Shown in pieces: positions 6,590 through 36,508 of a stretch of 64,000 bases of DNA. This DNA is from an uncultured Eubacteriaceae bacterium. Lineage in GTDB: Bacteria > Bacillota > Clostridia > Lachnospirales > CAG-274. The notes beneath the pieces were generated by a model, which worked only from the letters and a program-made list of their open reading frames with translations, was not told where the DNA came from and made no database searches. Each line of letters opens with the position of its first letter. Within the stretch, counting starts at the first letter, position 1. Made by a program: the position numbers and the translations under genes. The DNA lies in NCBI GenBank assembly GCA_947167715.1, contig CAMVJD010000007.1:12881-76880 (forward strand). Reading direction: 5' to 3'.

Positions 6590-6626
6590 AAAGTAAAAAG
6601 CCGCGGGATTGCCGCGGCTTTTGTAG
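6590..6626. terminator. Bidirectional intrinsic terminator (folate operon on +, small ORF/secreted-protein operon on -)
   Basis: AGCCGCGG-GATT-GCCGCGGCT stem, with an A-run on the left and a T-run on the right. Confidence 0.75.
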
Positions 6627-6627
6627 T

Positions 6628-6750
6628 TTATTCAAGCTCTTCGTCTATTTCGGTCGGTGTCATAACCAATGCAGATGTCATATTCATTATATCACATTCG
6701 TTATTAAAAACCGTAACTTCTACAGCGGGAATTTCATAAATCTTTTTCAA
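6628..6750 (-). CDS. Small ORF, 40 aa, unknown function (TTG start)
   Basis: Not in the ORF track. GGAGGA lies 8 nt upstream of the TTG at 6750, and an in-frame TAG lies just upstream. Product (M)KKIYEIPAVEVTVFNNECDIMNMTSALVMTPTEIDEELE. It starts 34 nt after the 547-aa gene and is followed by the terminator. Confidence 0.35.
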   Translation of the reverse strand: MKKIYEIPAVEVTVFNNECDIMNMTSALVMTPTEIDEELE

Positions 6751-6784
6751 AATCGTTTCCTCCTATCTTAAGTCTTTGACAGTA

Positions 6785-8428
6785 TTAAGCAAAAAGATTT
6801 GTTGTTATTTTATTTATATTTGTTTCGGCATCACTGCCCGGATGGTTGATCTTTGTAGCAAAAAGAAGATCATCGGCATTACCGCCAAACTCTGTTGCAT
6901 CATACGGTGTACCGCCGATATTTACTTTTTGGTAAACAGTATCGGAACTTACAAGCTTCTTGCCGTATACCTGCTCTAATCTGCTTGATGCCGCAGCCTG
7001 TGCTGCCGTAACCACCGATACAGCATAATGGTTTGCGCCGTCTGTATAATATTTAACAGCTTCGGAAGATGTCGGGGCTGCTGTAGTTGAAAGAGCAATG
7101 CTATATACATAATAATCATCATTCGGTGCAATAAGCTCTACATAACCTTTTGTAACATCAGCAGCAACAGCCTTGTATGATACATCACCCTTTGCAGTAG
7201 TTGTACCACCTATTGTTGCATTTGCATTTTCAGAATTTACAGTAACAGTATCGCCTACAGCATAAACGGGAATATATGCTGTAGCACCATCACGCATTTG
7301 AATATATCCATTTCCGTTATTGGCATATACAAATTTACCACCGCTCTTTGCATTTACAAATAACGAAATATTTGCAACATTTGAGTTTACAATGCCGTTT
7401 TTATTTTGATATGCTGTATTGTCTGCATTGTAACTTGTGCTTGTTTTGAAATCCCAAGTGTAATTGGTTACTACAGGGAATGCTGTGGATTTAACAGTGA
7501 TAGACTTGATATATCCACCTGATGCAGTACTAACCAATTCTACATCTCCTGCTGATGTAGTTGTGTATGGTGTTGTGTATTCTGTACCATTTATGGTTGC
7601 AGTTGTTCCACTTTTAAGAAGCACTGTTATAACAGCTCCGGATGGTACGTTGGGAATAGTGATTTTTGCACCATTTGTAAATTGTGCCCAAGTTTCTTTA
7701 TTGTAGCCAATTTTTCCACTCGTTGCATCAGCAATAAGTTCCGGAGCATTGGAAGCAGCAACCTTTGTCGTTGCCGCAATTGTTCCCGATGTATTTTGAT
7801 ATACTTTATTATCTTCAGCAATTAATTTTGCCGCAATATCATAAGTGGTTGTATATCTTGTCCCGGTAATATTTGAATTAGTAACAGAAAAATTCCTAAT
7901 TAATGGGTTTTTATTTCCTGCTGCAAAAAGATAATAATATCCGGCTTCATCTATCGCATCAAATACCGCAGTAACTTCTGTTAAAGATGTATAATCTGTG
8001 CTGCTTCCAATATGTACGGAATTGTATGTTGCTGTACTACTATATGTTGTTTCCGAATTGCCTCCCACGAGATACAATGTACAATCATTATTCTTTGATG
8101 AAAAAACAGCTTTTACTGTAACAACATCTCCCGCATCCGCAACAAAGCCAATATATCTGCCCGCCGCTTCAACAGCACTACCATTACTGATTTTATTGAG
8201 TTTTACTGCCGAATTACCATTTCCCGAATGTGACACTTTAAATACATCACCAACTTCATTTGTAACAGTATACGTTCCCGTAGTACCATTTGTTGCTCCT
8301 TCTCCATTCCAAGGCAAAGTTGTAAAATCAATGGTTGCTTCTGTTGCCCAAGCCGCAACACTACTCAACGCCATAGTTACGCCGACTACTGCTGTTGCCG
8401 CAATAGTCTTTAATAAAGATCTTCTCAT
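6785..8428 (-). CDS. Secreted protein of unknown function with about three repeated beta-rich modules
   Basis: AGGAGGA RBS. The signal peptide is MRRSLLKTIAATAVVGVTMALSSVAAWA. Module endings recur: YYYLFAAGNKNPLIRNFSVTN, GGYIKSITVKS, DDYYVYSIALS. No catalytic motif was recognised. Confidence 0.7.
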   Translation of the reverse strand: MRRSLLKTIAATAVVGVTMALSSVAAWATEATIDFTTLPWNGEGATNGTTGTYTVTNEVGDVFKVSHSGNGNSAVKLNKISNGSAVEAAGRYIGFVADAGDVVTVKAVFSSKNNDCTLYLVGGNSETTYSSTATYNSVHIGSSTDYTSLTEVTAVFDAIDEAGYYYLFAAGNKNPLIRNFSVTNSNITGTRYTTTYDIAAKLIAEDNKVYQNTSGTIAATTKVAASNAPELIADATSGKIGYNKETWAQFTNGAKITIPNVPSGAVITVLLKSGTTATINGTEYTTPYTTTSAGDVELVSTASGGYIKSITVKSTAFPVVTNYTWDFKTSTSYNADNTAYQNKNGIVNSNVANISLFVNAKSGGKFVYANNGNGYIQMRDGATAYIPVYAVGDTVTVNSENANATIGGTTTAKGDVSYKAVAADVTKGYVELIAPNDDYYVYSIALSTTAAPTSSEAVKYYTDGANHYAVSVVTAAQAAASSRLEQVYGKKLVSSDTVYQKVNIGGTPYDATEFGGNADDLLFATKINHPGSDAETNINKITTNLFA

Positions 8429-30399: not shown

Positions 30400-31023
30400 C
30401 TAATCTCCTTCCTCGTCCGTTTTTCTTGCGTCAAGCACCGTTTTGGCGGTATTGTGATCAAATCCGCGCCTTAAAAGAAAATCAAGGTGTTTTTTATATT
30501 CCTTCATATCGGAAATTTTGCCCTTGACGCGCTTTTCTATCAGTTTTTTTGCCTTTTCAAGCATAATATCATCCGTATTTTCAAGGTATTTCTCCGCCCT
30601 GCCGCGGTCTATGCCCCTTACGGCAAGCTCGGTCAAAATGCGCTGTTTTCCCCAGCCCTTTAAATTAAGACAATCCTTTACAAAAAGCTCGGCGTATTTT
30701 TCGTCATCCACAATTTTGTATTTTTTAAGCATGACCATAACACGGTCGATTATATCGGGCGAATACTCACCCTCCAGCTTTTTTCTTACCTCTTTTTCGG
30801 TGCGCTGCTTATAATCTATATATTTAAGCGCCGTTTCCCTTGCCTTTATAAATACAAGCTGTTCAAGTATCTCGTCATAGCGTGCACGGGACAGCTCCTC
30901 GCCCTCCTTTAGCTTGTAATACAAAAGGTCTACCCCGTCAATGCCAAAGGCAAACTCGTTATCTATAAAAACATTGTAACGGTTTGCGCGCTTTTTTTGC
31001 TGTGTTATTGCAGTTATTTTCAT
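30400..31023 (-). CDS. recX: RecA regulator RecX
   Basis: Three-helix repeat pattern (Y...RTEKEVRKKL, ...) typical of RecX. The start was moved to ATG 31023 (GGGAAG RBS); the ORF track starts at 31062. Confidence 0.75.
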   Translation of the reverse strand: MKITAITQQKKRANRYNVFIDNEFAFGIDGVDLLYYKLKEGEELSRARYDEILEQLVFIKARETALKYIDYKQRTEKEVRKKLEGEYSPDIIDRVMVMLKKYKIVDDEKYAELFVKDCLNLKGWGKQRILTELAVRGIDRGRAEKYLENTDDIMLEKAKKLIEKRVKGKISDMKEYKKHLDFLLRRGFDHNTAKTVLDARKTDEEGD

Positions 31024-31139
31024 AAACGGCACTTCCCTGTCCTGTTTTTTTGCAAAGTCCATACCTATTCATTATGATTATACCAAAAAACCAAAGAAAT
31101 CTCAATAATTATTTTTTCTTTGAATAAAATAGAAATCAA

Positions 31140-31397
31140 ATATGCTTGCGGTATGTTATTTTTTTCGGCAAGCAGAATCAATAAAATACGCTTGCGGTAT
31201 GTTATTTTTTTCGGCAAGCCCCGCAAATAATTTCGGCTTACGGCGGATGTCAAGCATACGCCGACACCGAAAAACATTTGCGTTTTTGCCGAACAGGGTA
31301 ACCTTATGCGTTTCGTTTGTTATAATGCTATATACAGCACCGTGTCTTTTTTATTTGCACTATAAAAAAACATATCGCAGGCAATAACTTTCGCGGC
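31140..31397. repeat. Dispersed MITE/REP-like element, copy B (left half only, with a 46-bp-period duplication of its end)
   Basis: GCTTGCGGTATGTTATTTTTTTCGGCAAGC occurs twice (31144-31173, 31190-31219). Collinear blocks shared with copy A follow: GGCAAGCCCCGCAAATAATTTC, CCGAAAAACATTTGCGT, TTATTTGCACTATAA, CTTTCGCGGCAAAAAC. Confidence 0.75.
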
Positions 31398-31434
31398 AAA
31401 AACAGATGAAGTCAAATTATTTTTTTCAAACTGC

Positions 31435-31463
31435 TTGATAAATCATTTAAGTTATGATATACT
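31435..31463 (+). promoter_or_regulatory. sigma-A promoter of the HprK-like/PqqD/peptidase operon
   Basis: TTGATA (31435-31440), 17-nt spacer, TATACT (31458-31463). An AAGAGG RBS precedes the ATG at 31495. Confidence 0.55.
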
Positions 31464-31494
31464 AACTAATATAGTATTTTTTAAGAGGTAACAG

Positions 31495-32202
31495 ATGAAA
31501 AAATTAAAAGTAGCAGATATAAACGTACTTATCAGATACACTCACCCCACGCTTGTAAAGCAGGCCGAGGCGTATTTGAGCGATTTTGATAAGGAAGACA
31601 TAGTAATAGACATACCTGAAAGCACATTGGAGCGCTTGCAGCAGGAAAACCCGCACCTGTCTGTTGACGATGTGGAATATATTTTTACGGGCGCGGCATT
31701 TTACGAAAATATACTCAATTATAACGGCTTTTTGCTCCATTCCTCGGGCGTTTGCGTAAACGGCTGGGCTTATCTTTTCTCGGCGGATTCGGGCACGGGA
31801 AAATCCACGCACACGGGGCTTTGGCAAAAGTATCTGGGCGAGGATACCGCAAAAATAATAAACGACGACAAGCCCGCAATACGCATTGTTGACGGCAAAA
31901 ACTATGTTTACGGCACCCCTTGGAGCGGCAAGACCGATATGAACCTGAATATGCGTATGCCGCTTGGCGGAATAGTTTTTCTTGAGCGTTCAACGGAAAA
32001 CTTTATTCACCCCATAACCACGCAGGAGGCCATACCAAAGCTTTTCCAACAGACCCTGCGGCCGCACGAGGCATCGCAGATGAACAAGCTGCTGGATGTG
32101 CTTGACAAGGTTTTAAGCGAAACACCCATTTACCGCCTGGGCTGTGATATGAGCAGGGAAGCGGTAGAATTAAGCTTTAATACAATAAGAAGGGATAAAT
32201 AA
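31495..32202 (+). CDS. HPr-kinase-C-terminal-domain-like P-loop protein (RiPP/lasso-precursor-kinase-like)
   Basis: LHSSGV..NGWAYLFSADSGTGKSTHTGLW...INDDKP is a P-loop followed by a DD motif, as in the HprK catalytic domain and HprK-related kinases. 235 aa, with no N-terminal HprK domain. Confidence 0.65.
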   Translation: MKKLKVADINVLIRYTHPTLVKQAEAYLSDFDKEDIVIDIPESTLERLQQENPHLSVDDVEYIFTGAAFYENILNYNGFLLHSSGVCVNGWAYLFSADSGTGKSTHTGLWQKYLGEDTAKIINDDKPAIRIVDGKNYVYGTPWSGKTDMNLNMRMPLGGIVFLERSTENFIHPITTQEAIPKLFQQTLRPHEASQMNKLLDVLDKVLSETPIYRLGCDMSREAVELSFNTIRRDK

Positions 32203-32204
32203 TT

Positions 32205-32471
32205 ATGAAAATTAAAGAAGGTTTTTTATTAAGAACAGTTGCAGGCAGCAATATTGTAGTGCCTATCGGCGAAGGAAGCATTGATTTCAGCGGCGTAATA
32301 ACCCTTAACGAGGTTGGCGCCTTTTTATGGAAAATACTTGAACAGCCCGCAGATAAGGCGGCGCTGCTTGAAAAACTTACCGCAGAATACGATGTTGATG
32401 CCAACACAGCTTCGCAGGATATAGATGCATTTTTAGCAAAATTAAGGGAGGCAAACCTTTTAGATGATTAA
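32205..32471 (+). CDS. PqqD-family protein (RiPP recognition element-like)
   Basis: 88 aa. LRTVAGSNIVVPIG....F.GVITLNEVGAFLWKILEQ...LL.KL..EYDVD...A..DIDAFL.KL is the typical PqqD/RRE pattern. It starts 2 nt after the upstream gene. Confidence 0.8.
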   Translation: MKIKEGFLLRTVAGSNIVVPIGEGSIDFSGVITLNEVGAFLWKILEQPADKAALLEKLTAEYDVDANTASQDIDAFLAKLREANLLDD

Positions 32472-32934
32472 GGAGGTACGTCTTGCCGAGCTGTATCCGG
32501 TAATGAAAGAGATGCTTGACAGCGGCGGCACGGCAAATTTTAACCCGCACGGCACAAGCATGCTGCCAATGCTGCACGACGACGGCGACCGCGTTATATT
32601 AAAAAAGCCCCGGGGCGAGCTTAAAAAATACGACCTGCCGCTTTACCGCAGGACGGACGGCGCCTTTGTGCTGCACCGCGTTGTAAGGCGCCCCGAAAAC
32701 GGCGTGTATACAATGTGCGGCGACAATCAATGGGCGCTTGAAAAAGGCATAAAGCACAGCCAAATAATAGGCGTGGTCATTGAGTTTGAAAGAAAAGGCA
32801 AAAAAATAAGCACCGAAAACAAGCTGTATAAGCTGTACGCAAGGGTATGGGTGGCAATTATGCCATTAAGACACCTTGTAATAGGCGGCAGCAGAAAAGT
32901 GAAAAGCCTGATAAAAAAAATACTGCATATATAA
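32464..32934 (+). CDS. S24/S26-type serine peptidase, SipW/ER-type-like (Ser-His), without an N-terminal TM anchor
   Basis: The GTSMLPML nucleophile motif, GDRVILKK and FVLHRVV resemble the SGSMxP...THRIV boxes of SipW-type signal peptidases. An 8-nt overlap (ATGATTAA) links it to the PqqD gene. Confidence 0.65.
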   Translation: MIKEVRLAELYPVMKEMLDSGGTANFNPHGTSMLPMLHDDGDRVILKKPRGELKKYDLPLYRRTDGAFVLHRVVRRPENGVYTMCGDNQWALEKGIKHSQIIGVVIEFERKGKKISTENKLYKLYARVWVAIMPLRHLVIGGSRKVKSLIKKILHI

Positions 32935-32940
32935 AAAATC

Positions 32941-32967
32941 GAGGCCGGAGCATTAAGCTCCGGCCTC
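32941..32967. terminator. Bidirectional terminator (operon on +, tRNA-Arg on -)
   Basis: GAGGCCGGAG-CATTA-AGCTCCGGCCTC. An A6 run on the plus side gives the minus-strand transcript a T-run. Confidence 0.75.
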
Positions 32968-32972
32968 TTCTA

Positions 32973-33044
32973 TACGCCCTGGGGGAATCGAACCCCTATC
33001 TTCCGATCCGGAGTCGAATGCTCTATCCATTAAGCTAAGGGCGC
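32973..33044 (-). tRNA. tRNA-Arg (anticodon CCG)
   Basis: Hand fold: acceptor GCGCCCT/AGGGCGT (with G1-U72), D arm GCTT..GAGC, anticodon stem TTCGA/TCGGA with loop CTCCGGA, T arm AGGGG-TTCGATT-CCCCC (A49/C65 mismatch), discriminator A. Confidence 0.75.
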
Positions 33045-33056
33045 ACAACAAGCCGA

Positions 33057-33989
33057 TTATCGGCTTTCTTTTGTATAATTAACAATATAAATACCCGCGC
33101 ATACGCACGCCAGCGCCGCGACAAGCCTTATATTAAGGAAATCCTCGCCGAGGAATATACCCGACAGGATGACCCCGAAAATAGGGTTTAAAAAACCGAA
33201 AAGAGAGATCTTGCCTACGGGGTTATACTTTATAAGCTTTGCCCAAAGTGTGAAAGCAAGTGCGGAAAGCACAGCAAGATAGGCCATACTGAAAATACAG
33301 TCCATGCCGTAGACCGCTATTTTGCCGCCAAAGGCAAGACCCGTTACCAAAAGCAGCAGGCCGCCAAGCGCAAGCTGAAAGCCCGTTAAGACCGCAGGCT
33401 CCGTGCCCTGTGCAAACACCTTTGTTATAACACCGCCCGTAGCAAAGCAAAAGGCCGCAAGCAGCATAAAGCCCTCGCCCATAAGCGAAAAGCCCATATC
33501 TATACCGCTGCCGAGATTGCAGATAACAATACCCGCAAAGCCCAGCACACAGCCCACTACCTTTGTAAGCGTCATTTTGTCATTTTTAAGAAAGATCGCC
33601 GCAAGAATGACCGCAAAAAAATTGCCCATAGAGTTGATGATAGACCCTTTTACGCCGGACAGATTTGTAAGGCTGATATAAAAGAAAATATATTCAAGCC
33701 AGGTCTGGACAAGGCCGAGCAAAACTATACCGCGTATATCCTTTTTTTGCGGCAAAATAAGGCGCCTGTTTGAAAAACAGTTGTACGCCGTTACCAGCAG
33801 CCCCGCCAGAATAAAGCGCACACCCGCAAACACCAGCTTATCCGCCGCAGTCCCGTCGGTTATGCGAAAAACACGGTATCCTATTTTTATTGCGGGAAAC
33901 GCGCTGCCCCAAAGAGCATTTGCTATGACCGCTATTAAAAGTATGGTCGAGCGCCTTGTATAAAAGGACGCTTCTTGCTTTTTATCCAT
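33057..33989 (-). CDS. DMT-superfamily (EamA-like) transporter
   Basis: 310 aa, about 10 TM helices, with a duplicated EamA-type pattern (ALWGSAFPAIK...). Confidence 0.8.
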   Translation of the reverse strand: MDKKQEASFYTRRSTILLIAVIANALWGSAFPAIKIGYRVFRITDGTAADKLVFAGVRFILAGLLVTAYNCFSNRRLILPQKKDIRGIVLLGLVQTWLEYIFFYISLTNLSGVKGSIINSMGNFFAVILAAIFLKNDKMTLTKVVGCVLGFAGIVICNLGSGIDMGFSLMGEGFMLLAAFCFATGGVITKVFAQGTEPAVLTGFQLALGGLLLLVTGLAFGGKIAVYGMDCIFSMAYLAVLSALAFTLWAKLIKYNPVGKISLFGFLNPIFGVILSGIFLGEDFLNIRLVAALACVCAGIYIVNYTKESR

Positions 33990-34159: not shown

Positions 34160-36316
34160 TTATTTAGCTTCTTCAGCCTTAGCCTCAGCCGCTGCCTTTT
34201 CAGCCTCGTCTTCAGCTATTTCTTCAGCCGACTTTGTGTTGAGTGCCTCTGTGTAAGCAGCATCTTCGTAAGCTGTGTCCTCATAAGCGGGAACCTCTTC
34301 GCCAACCTCGATGCCCTCAACAGCCTCTTCAACTGCTTCAGCCTTAACTGCGGATGTTGCGTTAACTACGTTAAACATAATAACTGCAACCTCTGCTCTT
34401 GTAATGTTTACGTTAGGATTGATCTTGCCGTTTGAACCGTTTACAATACCGTTCTCAACAAGGAATGCAACGTAAGGTCTTGCCCATACGGGGATGTCAG
34501 CCTCATCGGAGAACTGTGCAAGCACAGACTCGTCAGCTGTGATATCCATACCAAGTACCTTAAGTGCGTTTGCAACCATAACCATAAGCTCTGCGCGTGT
34601 GCAGAACTTCTCGGGACCGAAGTTGCCATCGCCGTAACCGTTTACAAGGCCTGCTTCCTTTGCAAGACCAACATAGTTGTAGTAGTACTTGTCGGGGAAT
34701 ACATCATCAAAGTTAGATGTTGCCGTGCCCTCAAGGCCTACAAGCTTTGCAAGCATAATAGCAAAGTCTGCTCTCTTGCAGCTTGCCTGCGGAGCAAATT
34801 CGCCGTCGCTTACGCCGTTAAGGATACCCATCTCGGCAAGAGCCTCGATAGCTTCTTCAGCCCAAGGTGTGCTTGAAAGGTCATTGAAAAGACCGGAAAC
34901 CTCAACAACTGTTTCTGTAGTTGCCTCTGTCTCTTCTGTTGCAGCCTCTGTTGAATCCTCAACATCAGCTGTTGTAGCTTCGGTATCTGCCTCTGTTGTG
35001 GTGGTCTTTGTACTTCTTCTTACAGTACCGCCGCCGCCACCGCCGCCGCCGCTTGATGCAGCTGACGATGAAGAACCGCCGCCTCTTGCAGCCTCTGTGG
35101 TAGTCTCGGTAGGAGCAGCTTTAGTTACATTTGAAGCACTATTTGTTGTAGCTTCTGTTGTAGCTTCCGTAACGCTGCTTGTTGTAGCCTCTGTAACCTT
35201 TTCGGTAACCTTCTGTGTAGCATCTTCCGGAGCTGCTTCCTTTGTAGTTGCTTCCTTTGTAGTTGCTTCCTTTGTGATCACAACTGTTGTAACTTCCTTT
35301 GTTGTAGCCTCGGTAGGCTTTTCTGTTGTAGGAGCAGTTGTTGTGGGAGCTGTTGTAGTAGGAGCCTTTGTTGTGGGCGCCGTTGTTGTAGGAGCTGTTG
35401 TAGTAGCCTCTGTTGTAGCTTCCTTTGTTGTAGGAGCTGTTGTAGCCTCTGTTGTAGCTTCCTTTGTAGTAGCCTCTGTTGTAGCTTCTGTTGTTACTTC
35501 TGCTGCACCTACAGCTATCTTATTGGGATAGTTTTCTGTAGGAATATCCGTTTTACCTGAAATAGGCGGATAACCAAACTTAACTACTTCAATAGATAAG
35601 CCTGCATCACCCTCACCGATAACATCAAATGTTAACGAGAAAAGCTTGCCGTCGCCTTCTACAGCCTTAATGTAGTTGTTTGAATCAACGTAAGTAGAAT
35701 CGGGCATACCTGCGATCATTATCTTACCAAGCTGACCTGCTGTTGCTGTGCCGTCAGGCTTAACATCAGCATACTTGTCGGAATCAGCTGCAGGAACATA
35801 AGCGATCTGACCGTTGATCATCTTGTTTGTAAAGAATGCCTTTTTGACCATTTCGCCCTCGTCATTCTCTACTTCATAATAGATATAGCCTTTGCTTGCC
35901 AGTTCGGATGCCTTTGCAACATTGCCGGCCTTTGCCTGGATAACCGCAGGATTATAGCGTACATAGAATGTAGCTGATGAAAATCCCGGATTCTGTAAAA
36001 GGCTAAAATCAATGTTTACTGTGCTGCCGATAAGTGCGGGGTCGATAGTTTCAACGCCCGTGTCGGTTTCACCCTCAAGTGAAGCCTTGATGTACATTTT
36101 TCCTTCTTCCATATTGAAAGGTTCTGTATCATCATAAACCGCAATATCTTCCGAATAGCTAACTGCCGCAGGTGTTTCCGTAACATCGGTCACAGCTGCT
36201 TCAGCAACAACATCGGCCTCTTCGGCACTTACAAGCACATTGCTTGTAAGGATGCTTGAAAACAGCATACTTGTTGCAATAATACTGCTTACAAGCCTTT
36301 TAGTTGTTTTTTTCAC
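34160..36316 (-). CDS. Cell-surface protein: signal peptide, cohesin-like beta-sandwich (tentative), Thr-rich linkers, three SLH domains, acidic/Ala-rich tail
   Basis: A GTG start at 36316 follows AAGGAGGA (the ORF track uses TTG 36346). The SLH triplet is FNDLSSTPWAEEAIEALAEMGILNG, FDDVFPDKYYYNYVGLAKEAGLVNG, FSDEADIPVWARPYVAFLVENGIVNG. The linker is (EATTK)n plus a G8 run. Confidence 0.8.
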   Translation of the reverse strand: MKKTTKRLVSSIIATSMLFSSILTSNVLVSAEEADVVAEAAVTDVTETPAAVSYSEDIAVYDDTEPFNMEEGKMYIKASLEGETDTGVETIDPALIGSTVNIDFSLLQNPGFSSATFYVRYNPAVIQAKAGNVAKASELASKGYIYYEVENDEGEMVKKAFFTNKMINGQIAYVPAADSDKYADVKPDGTATAGQLGKIMIAGMPDSTYVDSNNYIKAVEGDGKLFSLTFDVIGEGDAGLSIEVVKFGYPPISGKTDIPTENYPNKIAVGAAEVTTEATTEATTKEATTEATTAPTTKEATTEATTTAPTTTAPTTKAPTTTAPTTTAPTTEKPTEATTKEVTTVVITKEATTKEATTKEAAPEDATQKVTEKVTEATTSSVTEATTEATTNSASNVTKAAPTETTTEAARGGGSSSSAASSGGGGGGGGTVRRSTKTTTTEADTEATTADVEDSTEAATEETEATTETVVEVSGLFNDLSSTPWAEEAIEALAEMGILNGVSDGEFAPQASCKRADFAIMLAKLVGLEGTATSNFDDVFPDKYYYNYVGLAKEAGLVNGYGDGNFGPEKFCTRAELMVMVANALKVLGMDITADESVLAQFSDEADIPVWARPYVAFLVENGIVNGSNGKINPNVNITRAEVAVIMFNVVNATSAVKAEAVEEAVEGIEVGEEVPAYEDTAYEDAAYTEALNTKSAEEIAEDEAEKAAAEAKAEEAK

Positions 36317-36508
36317 TTTACTTCCTCCTTTTTTGTTTTTTAGCAATGTCCGTTGTAAAACGTGCGTTTTGTCCCGTTGACACTACTTCAATATGATTAT
36401 ATAATTTTTCTTTAAAAAAGTCAATTTATTTTGTAAAATTTCTTAAATTTGTTGATTTTACCAAAACTCCGCAAGAAAAATTCACAAAAACAGCATGACT
36501 TTTAAAGA

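Follow-up and report, generated by a model that had tools for sequence, protein, structure and literature searches.

What does an operon that encodes a kinase, a peptide-binding protein and a peptidase act on, when no substrate gene stands beside it? This question is raised by three tightly packed genes in a 64,000-nucleotide stretch of DNA (the window) from an uncultured Eubacteriaceae bacterium of the Clostridia (assembly GCA_947167715.1, contig CAMVJD010000007.1). An earlier interpretation made without database searches (the sequence-only reading) had described them as a stand-alone module that would recognise, phosphorylate and cleave a peptide, with no substrate in sight. We put at about 0.7 the probability that the operon is the kinase-recognition element-peptidase core of a Clostridial system related to the linear polyphosphorylated peptides (LPPs), its products being equivalents of LppK, LppB and LppS that would act by binding, phosphorylating and cleaving a precursor. 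The earlier proposal equals the logic that has been shown experimentally for the homologous proteins LppK, LppB and LppS (PMC13381572). The trio as such is not new, since the same set of genes has already been described as the core of LPP clusters (PMC13381572), which is what the sequence-only reading had named beforehand as refuting its claim of novelty.

The LPP systems and their probable Clostridial counterpart

LPP clusters were defined by Popov et al. (Nat Commun, 20 May 2026; PMC13381572) from about 126 mostly Bacilli sequences, in a study that worked from 199 sequences. The genes, from Paenibacillus alginolyticus DSM5050 and other Bacilli, have the order A-K-B-S-D-N, often lie within capsule loci, and encode a precursor (LppA), an HprK-like kinase (LppK), a discrete RRE (LppB; RRE, the recognition element of RiPPs, peptides that are synthesized ribosomally and post-translationally modified), an SpI-like peptidase (LppS), an MsbA-like exporter (LppD) and an NTP transferase of the NTP_transf_5 type (LppN). 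In B. subtilis, LppK adds up to four phosphates to core Ser3, and LppS, which requires LppB and has an N-terminal helix that touches the RRE-leader sheet, cuts the leader off after Thr-1. The LppS residues S29, H68 and D93 are essential, the unphosphorylated precursor is a poor LppS substrate, and deletion of lppN led to no detectable change (PMC13381572).

The window trio has the same three protein types, and the same K-B-S order (kinase, RRE, peptidase), here with translational coupling. Its peptidase is likewise a soluble SipW-type protein of roughly 150 aa with an N-terminal and a C-terminal helix, and in its relatives elsewhere the trio is joined by an MsbA-like exporter and NTP_transf_5, the whole often lying within a capsule locus. 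The candidate precursors resemble LppA in having a YxxP leader followed by a conserved Ser. In contrast, the window system stems from Clostridia and not from Bacilli, its candidate precursor is unlinked, and the leader families differ, the Clostridial consensus being MKKxYxxPEIEIxxFEVEDIITxS and the Bacilli motif YxxPxVLxHQxIxFETxxS (PMC13381572).

The best NCBIfam model for the kinase is TIGR04249 (ScmC; 1.7e-8), followed by HprK_rel_B, and its homologues carry the tag PF27840 (ScmC). The protein is touched by the same models (TIGR04249, TIGR04352 and TIGR04355) by which the kinases of the LPP study were detected (PMC13381572). The local Pfam library, including Hpr_kinase at E up to 1, gave no match, and neither did a sequence search of the PDB. 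An AlphaFold (AF2) model built from 39 homologues (pLDDT, the predicted local distance difference test score, 94) has as its top Foldseek matches in the PDB the HprK/P structures 1kkm and 1jb1 (E 1e-5, probability 1.0) and 1ko7, followed by phosphoenolpyruvate (PEP) carboxykinases, which have the same fold. The HprK fold that had been proposed from the motifs thus holds at the level of structure, albeit without a match to Hpr_kinase_C, and only the fold and the P-loop are common to this protein and HprK/P. Walker A (GTGKST, of the form GxGKST), NDDKP and PWSGK are invariant across the 39 homologues, and the N-terminal 75 residues or so form a separate domain.

It might be asked whether this protein is a peptide kinase at all, or rather a ScmC-like nucleotide-binding partner in a pathway whose final modification is not phosphorylation. 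ScmC, its best curated model, is of unknown function and belongs to the SynChlorMet cassette, in which it also has a PqqD-family partner; in addition, Hpr_kinase_C is not matched in Pfam at E up to 1, and the kinase gene stands alone in about 25 of the 86 places of our neighbourhood survey (85 fetched loci and the window). However, the HprK/P fold is combined with invariant Walker A and DD motifs, and proven kinases of the LppK type are detected by the very same TIGR04249 model (PMC13381572). Moreover, two radical SAM/SPASM enzymes (ScmE/ScmF) are the defining members of the SynChlorMet cassette, and no radical SAM enzyme is found among the neighbours of the trio in the window or among the recurrent neighbours of the survey. 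A role of the protein other than that of a kinase is therefore very unlikely.

The second gene encodes a PqqD protein, as had been stated (Pfam PqqD 1.3e-18; lasso PqqD chaperone models about 2e-9); its score to the ScmD model is 20, with a cutoff of 100. When the window proteins were compared locally with the sequences of Supplementary Data 1 of the LPP study, it was found to be 36% identical to LppB over 44 residues (E 9e-8), and 41-49% identical (E 1e-24 to 1e-28) to the RREs that lie beside the peptidases of clusters 4 and 9 of the published sequence similarity network (SSN).

The peptidase has a weak match to Pfam Peptidase_S24 (0.0085), no match in NCBIfam at E up to 1, and only chance matches in a sequence search of the PDB. 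Its AF2 model (pLDDT 85) matches the structures of the signal peptidases SpsB and SipA as well as LexA, UmuD and lambda cI, and the fold is that of clan SF. Invariant in 44 homologues are Gly30-x-Ser32-Met-Leu-Pro, His71-Arg72, Gly86-Asp-Asn-Gln (GDNQ, residues 86-89) and Glu93, from which a catalytic triad of Ser32, His71 and Glu93 is predicted. In a full-length alignment, S29, H68 and D93 of LppS fall on S32, H71 and E93, the spacing between Ser and His being identical (39 residues). In the model, residues 7-19 form a charged, amphipathic helix at the N-terminal end, and residues 120-153 a long one at the C-terminal end. The start of the protein, MIKEVRLAELYPVMKEMLDSGG, lacks hydrophobic character and a membrane anchor, no transmembrane predictor having been run. 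Fold, invariant S32 and H71 and the charged N-terminal helix all bear out the earlier assignment to the SipW-type Ser/His peptidases that lack an N-terminal anchor. The serine box GTSMxP, the histidine box HR, the GDN box and the clan SF fold are common to this protein and the SipW, Sec11 and archaeal type I signal peptidases (S26B). Unlike these enzymes, it lacks the anchor and should hence act in the cytoplasm, and by analogy with LppS it would depend on an RRE and have a RiPP leader, not a Sec signal peptide, as its substrate. The family is large: an exhaustive profile search gave 268 clusters at 50% identity with E<=1e-30 and 3303 with E<=1e-10.

The closest sequences listed in the LPP study are those of SSN cluster 9 (uncultured Ruminococcus, for example SCH01704.1, and Firmicutes CAG:56, CDA64014.1), which are 37-38% identical to the window peptidase (E about 1e-30), and those of cluster 4 (Desulfitobacteriaceae such as Desulfosporosinus and Dehalobacter, and Anaerocolumna), with 30-31% identity (E 1e-20 to 1e-25). 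Their peptidases also have Glu at the third triad position, and their RREs begin with the same MKIKEGFLLR... stretch. Both clusters had been catalogued as SpI beside an "other" RRE with the precursor undetermined, nothing was reported on a kinase, a precursor or any chemistry in them, and the study focused on cluster 1 (PMC13381572), outside of which the window peptidase falls (membership: E better than about 1e-23 to LppS-like sequences). Because peptidase and RRE are closest to clusters 9 and 4, and the peptidase is remote from LppS, has Glu93 and does not match TIGR02228, the window operon is filed, on sequence grounds, as a Clostridial sister variant of the LPP systems and is kept apart from the characterised family of cluster 1.

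Conservation of the trio

When one genome per GTDB species was scanned, relatives of the kinase turned up in no fewer than 593 of these species representatives, almost all of them from uncultured gut or rumen Clostridia. The K, B and S genes occur together in 42 of the 86 surveyed places, with many different flanks, and the trio is thus a conserved co-localised unit. That the trio stands alone does not hold in general: an ABC exporter (ABC_membrane and ABC_tran) and/or NTP_transf_5 adjoins it in 21 of the 42 places, typical orders being K-B-S-ABC-NTP5 and NTP5-K-B-S-ABC, and an NTP_transf_5 gene was seen in 15 related loci. In another 15 of the 42 the trio is bare, as in the window, and its flanks vary (for example, it follows argS or a metH-like gene).

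The bare layout could be taken for decay, that is, for the inactive rest of what was once a full LPP-type cluster, its precursor, exporter and NTP transferase having been lost, since the window contains no equivalents of LppD and LppN and other genomes have fuller clusters. However, a remnant would hardly have been kept as a trio in at least 15 places with different flanks and 57-88% identity, with intact reading frames, invariant catalytic residues and preserved translational coupling, and we regard this explanation as very unlikely indeed.

A different explanation would be that the trio serves in trans a lasso peptide pathway encoded elsewhere in the genome, with the kinase as tailoring enzyme and the PqqD protein as B1. 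The paeninodin and pseudomycoidin lasso clusters of Bacillota have in common with the present loci an HprK-like kinase that acts on a precursor Ser, a PqqD-type B1 RRE and, in the related loci, NTP_transf_5, all of which are typical of paeninodin-like clusters, and lasso genes adjoin about one third of SpI genes in Bacilli (PMC13381572). Unlike those clusters, the window trio lacks a macrolactam synthetase and a B2 cysteine protease; a serine peptidase would remove the leader, and a linear product is to be presumed. Neither a lasso cyclase nor a B2 protease was found among the recurrent neighbours or in nine loci with Pfam annotation of their genes (L001-L005 and L087-L090), and these two enzymes as well as radical SAM enzymes are absent from the neighbours within about 6 kb of the trio and from the recurrent neighbours, in agreement with the sequence-only reading. 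In addition, the RREs of LPP systems discriminate against lasso precursors (PMC13381572). A lasso pathway served in trans is thus extremely improbable. Two neighbour clusters tried as lasso cyclase or B2 protease were rejected, as c27 consists of a Wzz-BY-kinase fusion and c42 of a membrane protein without annotation; the "genes" of a third cluster, c16, are antisense shadows of the PqqD gene.

The kinase homologues are often embedded among regulators of capsule and cell wall. CpsB-Wzz-CpsD lies directly upstream of the kinase gene in six loci (L026, L035, L045, L047, L055 and L082), LytR_cpsA_psr directly downstream in five (L032, L041, L073, L076 and L078), and SLH-protein genes directly upstream in eight. 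This setting matches that of the Bacilli LPP clusters in capsule loci (PMC13381572).

Among the loci with a solitary kinase gene, it is divergent from an adjacent dinB-like DNA polymerase IV gene in nine (L052-L054, L058, L060, L061, L063, L069 and L070), and a DUF4430 lipoprotein-like gene comes next in five (L036, L040, L051, L071 and L077). In one locus, L050, the solitary kinase gene is accompanied by a precursor-like open reading frame (ORF), which suggests that the partner genes can be scattered over the genome.

Four loci of Acutalibacteraceae (L032, L041, L073 and L078) have the order PqqD-K-LCP, unlike K-B-S. There, three tandem type IV pilin-like genes with an N_methyl motif come first, and no S26-like peptidase was found within 8 kb. 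In the clusters of the form CpsBCD-(NTP5)-K-B-S-ABC, a conserved helical ORF of 61-66 aa (..EELAMIFHDALW..) lies antisense just after the ABC exporter gene in three loci (Table 1), of which L045 has no NTP_transf_5 gene; the precursor family described in the next section was not found in these three clusters.

A precursor-like peptide family in Clostridia

By clustering small ORFs preceded by a Shine-Dalgarno motif around the kinase genes, a family of peptides was found that follows the pattern MKKxYxxPE[IL]E[IV]xxFxxEDIIxxS. Its members at kinase loci have 34-53 aa, and the conserved leader is followed by a core rich in G, D, T and N. They lie immediately upstream of the kinase gene in six loci (L017, L042, L050, L062, L065 and L072) and near it in four others (L033, L039, L068 and L080), and variants are present in L074 and L075, which makes 12 loci in all. 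A profile search of a large protein collection gave 291 family peptides of 31-67 aa, all of them unannotated. Nearly invariant in the family are the positions of Tyr, Pro, Phe, Glu, Asp and Ser, while its C-terminal regions are rich in G, D, T and N. When the search was reversed and started from two of the peptides, full clusters were recovered with the order A-x-K-PqqD-S-ABC-NTP5 (L089 and L090), or with A-K divergent from PqqD-S-ABC-NTP5 (L087 and L088).

Because the family sits beside the kinase and full clusters are recovered from the peptides, its members are good candidates, on genomic evidence, for the Clostridial equivalents of LppA. The family is described neither in the LPP study (PMC13381572) nor in the literature that was searched with strings of the leader motif. 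A looser version of the Bacilli leader motif, [YWF]xxPx9[FYLM]x[TAS], was dropped after it had given 168 non-specific matches.

A candidate precursor gene in the window

A hidden Markov model (HMM) of the precursors, built without the window sequence, was used to search 35,948 six-frame segments, and its sole significant match outside the seed (E 0.001, 19.6 bits; next E 5.3) is a 40-aa ORF of the window that has a TTG start and is followed by an intrinsic terminator (Table 1). In public assemblies, a gene has been called for the identical peptide. A substrate may thus be in sight after all, contrary to the sequence-only reading, and we consider the odds to lie slightly in favour of this ORF being the substrate of the trio. 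If a genome of about 2.5 Mb contained one such gene, it would come to lie no more than 25 kb from the trio with a chance of about 2%, which is a rough estimate and not a computed test.

The ORF is preceded by the gene of a 547-aa secreted protein, which has no Pfam match and no detectable homology to the proteins that precede precursor genes elsewhere. The two genes are likely to be co-transcribed, because no terminator lies between them. In the window as well as in the closest relatives, exactly 34 nt separate the gene of a signal-peptide protein from the precursor gene, and the spacers are similar in sequence. Among themselves, these upstream proteins show no detectable homology.

This arrangement leads to yet another explanation, namely, that the trio acts on a protein or envelope substrate, for example an SLH or other surface protein or a factor in the regulation of capsule or cell-wall polysaccharides, and that the peptide family is incidental. 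Apart from the association of kinase genes with CpsB-Wzz-CpsD, LytR_cpsA_psr and SLH-protein genes noted above, it is favoured by the position of the candidate peptide and its closest relatives behind secreted-protein genes at a conserved distance, by an SLH-protein gene 1.2 kb downstream of the trio, and by the remark in the LPP study that those clusters are embedded in capsule loci and have an unknown biological role (PMC13381572). However, the PqqD-type RRE is a binder of peptide leaders and a small precursor is the demonstrated substrate in the homologous system (PMC13381572), the peptide family has the YxxP signature of RRE binding and adjoins the kinase gene in many genomes, and the trio also occurs between housekeeping flanks (argS, metH-like) where envelope genes are lacking. 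An envelope substrate is thus rather unlikely.

Proposed mechanism

In the LPP-like mechanism that we prefer, the PqqD protein would bind the YxxP leader of a small precursor peptide, most likely that of the unlinked 40-aa ORF, and the kinase would use ATP to add one or more phosphates to the Ser just after the leader. The peptidase, with Ser32, His71 and Glu93, would then dock on the RRE-leader complex via its N-terminal helix and cut the leader off in the cytoplasm. The exporter (LppD) and the NTP transferase (LppN) would be encoded elsewhere in the genome or be dispensable. Polyphosphorylation of core Ser3, cleavage that depends on the RRE and the S/H/D triad have been shown for the Bacilli homologues only; from these we infer, by analogy, the activities of the Clostridial proteins and the Ser that would be modified.

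Several observations weigh against this reading. The peptidase is only 25% identical to LppS (E 1.7e-10), its third catalytic residue is Glu instead of Asp, as it also is in SSN clusters 4 and 9, and it has no match to TIGR02228, whereas all SpI of the LPP study match this model (PMC13381572); furthermore, the RREs of clusters 4 and 9 were labelled "other" and not LPP RREs (PMC13381572). The kinase scores 34 bits with TIGR04249, far under the curated cutoff of 125. The Bacilli leader motif, in strict and relaxed patterns, has no real match in the window and the 85 related loci, and no exporter (LppD) or NTP_transf_5 (LppN) gene was found in the 64 kb of the window by tblastn with representatives from related loci; a LytR_cpsA_psr representative, searched in the same way, likewise gave no match. 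As for the candidate precursor, it lies 24.7 kb from the trio and reaches only 19.6 bits. It is divergent, having an inserted Cys and a Thr in the nearly invariant Ser column, with a Ser one position later, and its closest relatives (P0345, P0357 and P0300/P0315) are "orphans" behind secreted-protein genes, no kinase gene being present on their available contigs, which are short.

Three features appear to be new: the leader family of the Clostridia, the clade of peptidases with Ser/His/Glu, and the conserved layout in which the trio is bare and the precursor unlinked. A more far-reaching proposal, which we put forward tentatively and at less than even odds, is that gut and rumen Clostridia harbour a distinct and very widespread subfamily of phosphopeptide RiPPs, in which a minimal trio acts in trans on unlinked precursors of the Clostridial consensus. 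The genes of these precursors appear to share transcripts with those of variable secreted or surface proteins. If the proposal were true, neither an exporter nor an NTP transferase of their own would be required for the products, which would hint at a role within the cell or at its surface, linked to envelope biogenesis, and not at a classical exported bacteriocin.

On the LPP-like reading, the logic of kinase, RRE and serine peptidase extends to uncultured Clostridia of gut and rumen, a large clade that has its own leader family and a stripped-down, unlinked layout. Concrete pairs of precursors and enzymes are now testable, and the rules of genome mining for LPP-type RiPPs would be widened. 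Current models miss this class, as the peptidase has no NCBIfam match and a sub-threshold Pfam match, and the peptides have no match at all.

Operon layout and control elements

The positions of all features are given in Table 1.

Table 1. Genes and sequence elements of the window and of related loci (positions refer to the window unless a locus is named)
Feature	Position	Strand	Description
lppK-like gene	31495-32202	+	235 aa; HprK-fold P-loop kinase, ScmC family (PF27840 / TIGR04249)
lppB-like gene	32205-32471	+	88 aa; discrete PqqD-type RRE
lppS-like gene	32464-32934	+	156 aa; soluble SipW/archaeal-type (S26B-like) leader peptidase, as predicted
Candidate lppA-like precursor gene	6628-6750	-	40 aa; TTG start, strong Shine-Dalgarno sequence (GGAGG) eight bases upstream; MKKIYEIPAVEVTVFNNECDIMNMTSALVMTPTEIDEELE
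Leader stretch of MKKxYxxP type			MKKIYEIPAVEV; Tyr5 and Pro8 are the YxxP positions
Intrinsic terminator right after the candidate precursor gene	6596-6622	-	11-bp stem, then TACTTTTTTG
Gene upstream of the candidate precursor gene	6785-8428	-	547-aa secreted protein
34-nt spacers	window 6751-6784; L086 5016-5049; L091 630-663; L092 1196-1229		similar, ..AAGAxAGGxGGAAA..
Sigma-70-like promoter candidate	31435-31463	+	TTGATA-17-TATACT; TG before -10; 10/12 matches
GC-rich hairpin between lppS-like gene and tRNA-Arg	32941-32967		11-bp stem, 9 GC pairs
Tandem direct repeats	31134-31225		two copies of 46 nt
recX	30400-31062	-	Pfam RecX_HTH1-3 match
tRNA-Arg(ccg)	32972-33045	-	
SLH-protein gene	34160-36346	-	728 aa
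Helical ORF copies	L026 9976-10176; L045 11203-11388; L047 11236-11436	all -	clusters CpsBCD-(NTP5)-K-B-S-ABC

The ORF list and the raw sequence agree with the earlier description of three packed genes on one strand, the first two separated by 2 nt and the last two overlapping by 8 nt (ATGATTAA), and all motifs quoted for them are found (SADSGTGKST, NDDKP, GTSMLPML and VLHRVV). The flanks were also correctly named as recX and tRNA-Arg; an Rfam scan of 30900-33200 detected nothing beyond the tRNA. Genes found within about 6 kb of the trio are recX, tmk, holB, PSP1, EamA, SLH, Cu_amine_oxidN1 and a MurG-like gene. The SLH protein, encoded 1.2 kb downstream of the trio, has a repetitive middle part rich in Thr, Ala and Glu, and three SLH domains.

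The operon had also been credited with a promoter and a terminator of its own, for which the evidence is divided. The promoter site is present, but such sites are not enriched, five promoter-like sites being found where 5.2 are expected from shuffled sequences. The hairpin downstream of the operon also exists, but it satisfies the terminator rule only on the minus strand, on which tRNA-Arg is encoded: the tail is TTCTATAC on the plus strand, and a T-run, GATTTTTTAT, stands on the minus strand. Because of the position of the T-run, the hairpin looks primarily like the terminator of tRNA-Arg; it may be used in both directions and probably serves as a bidirectional terminator or one that is shared.

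Between the divergent recX and kinase genes lie two tandem direct repeats of 46 nt, which are 83% identical overall. A core of 30 nt, GCTTGCGGTATGTTATTTTTTTCGGCAAGC, is identical in both copies, and each core contains an inverted repeat, GCTTGC...GCAAGC. The sequence has no other copy in the window and no match in Rfam, and the pair could represent two operators or two small hairpins.

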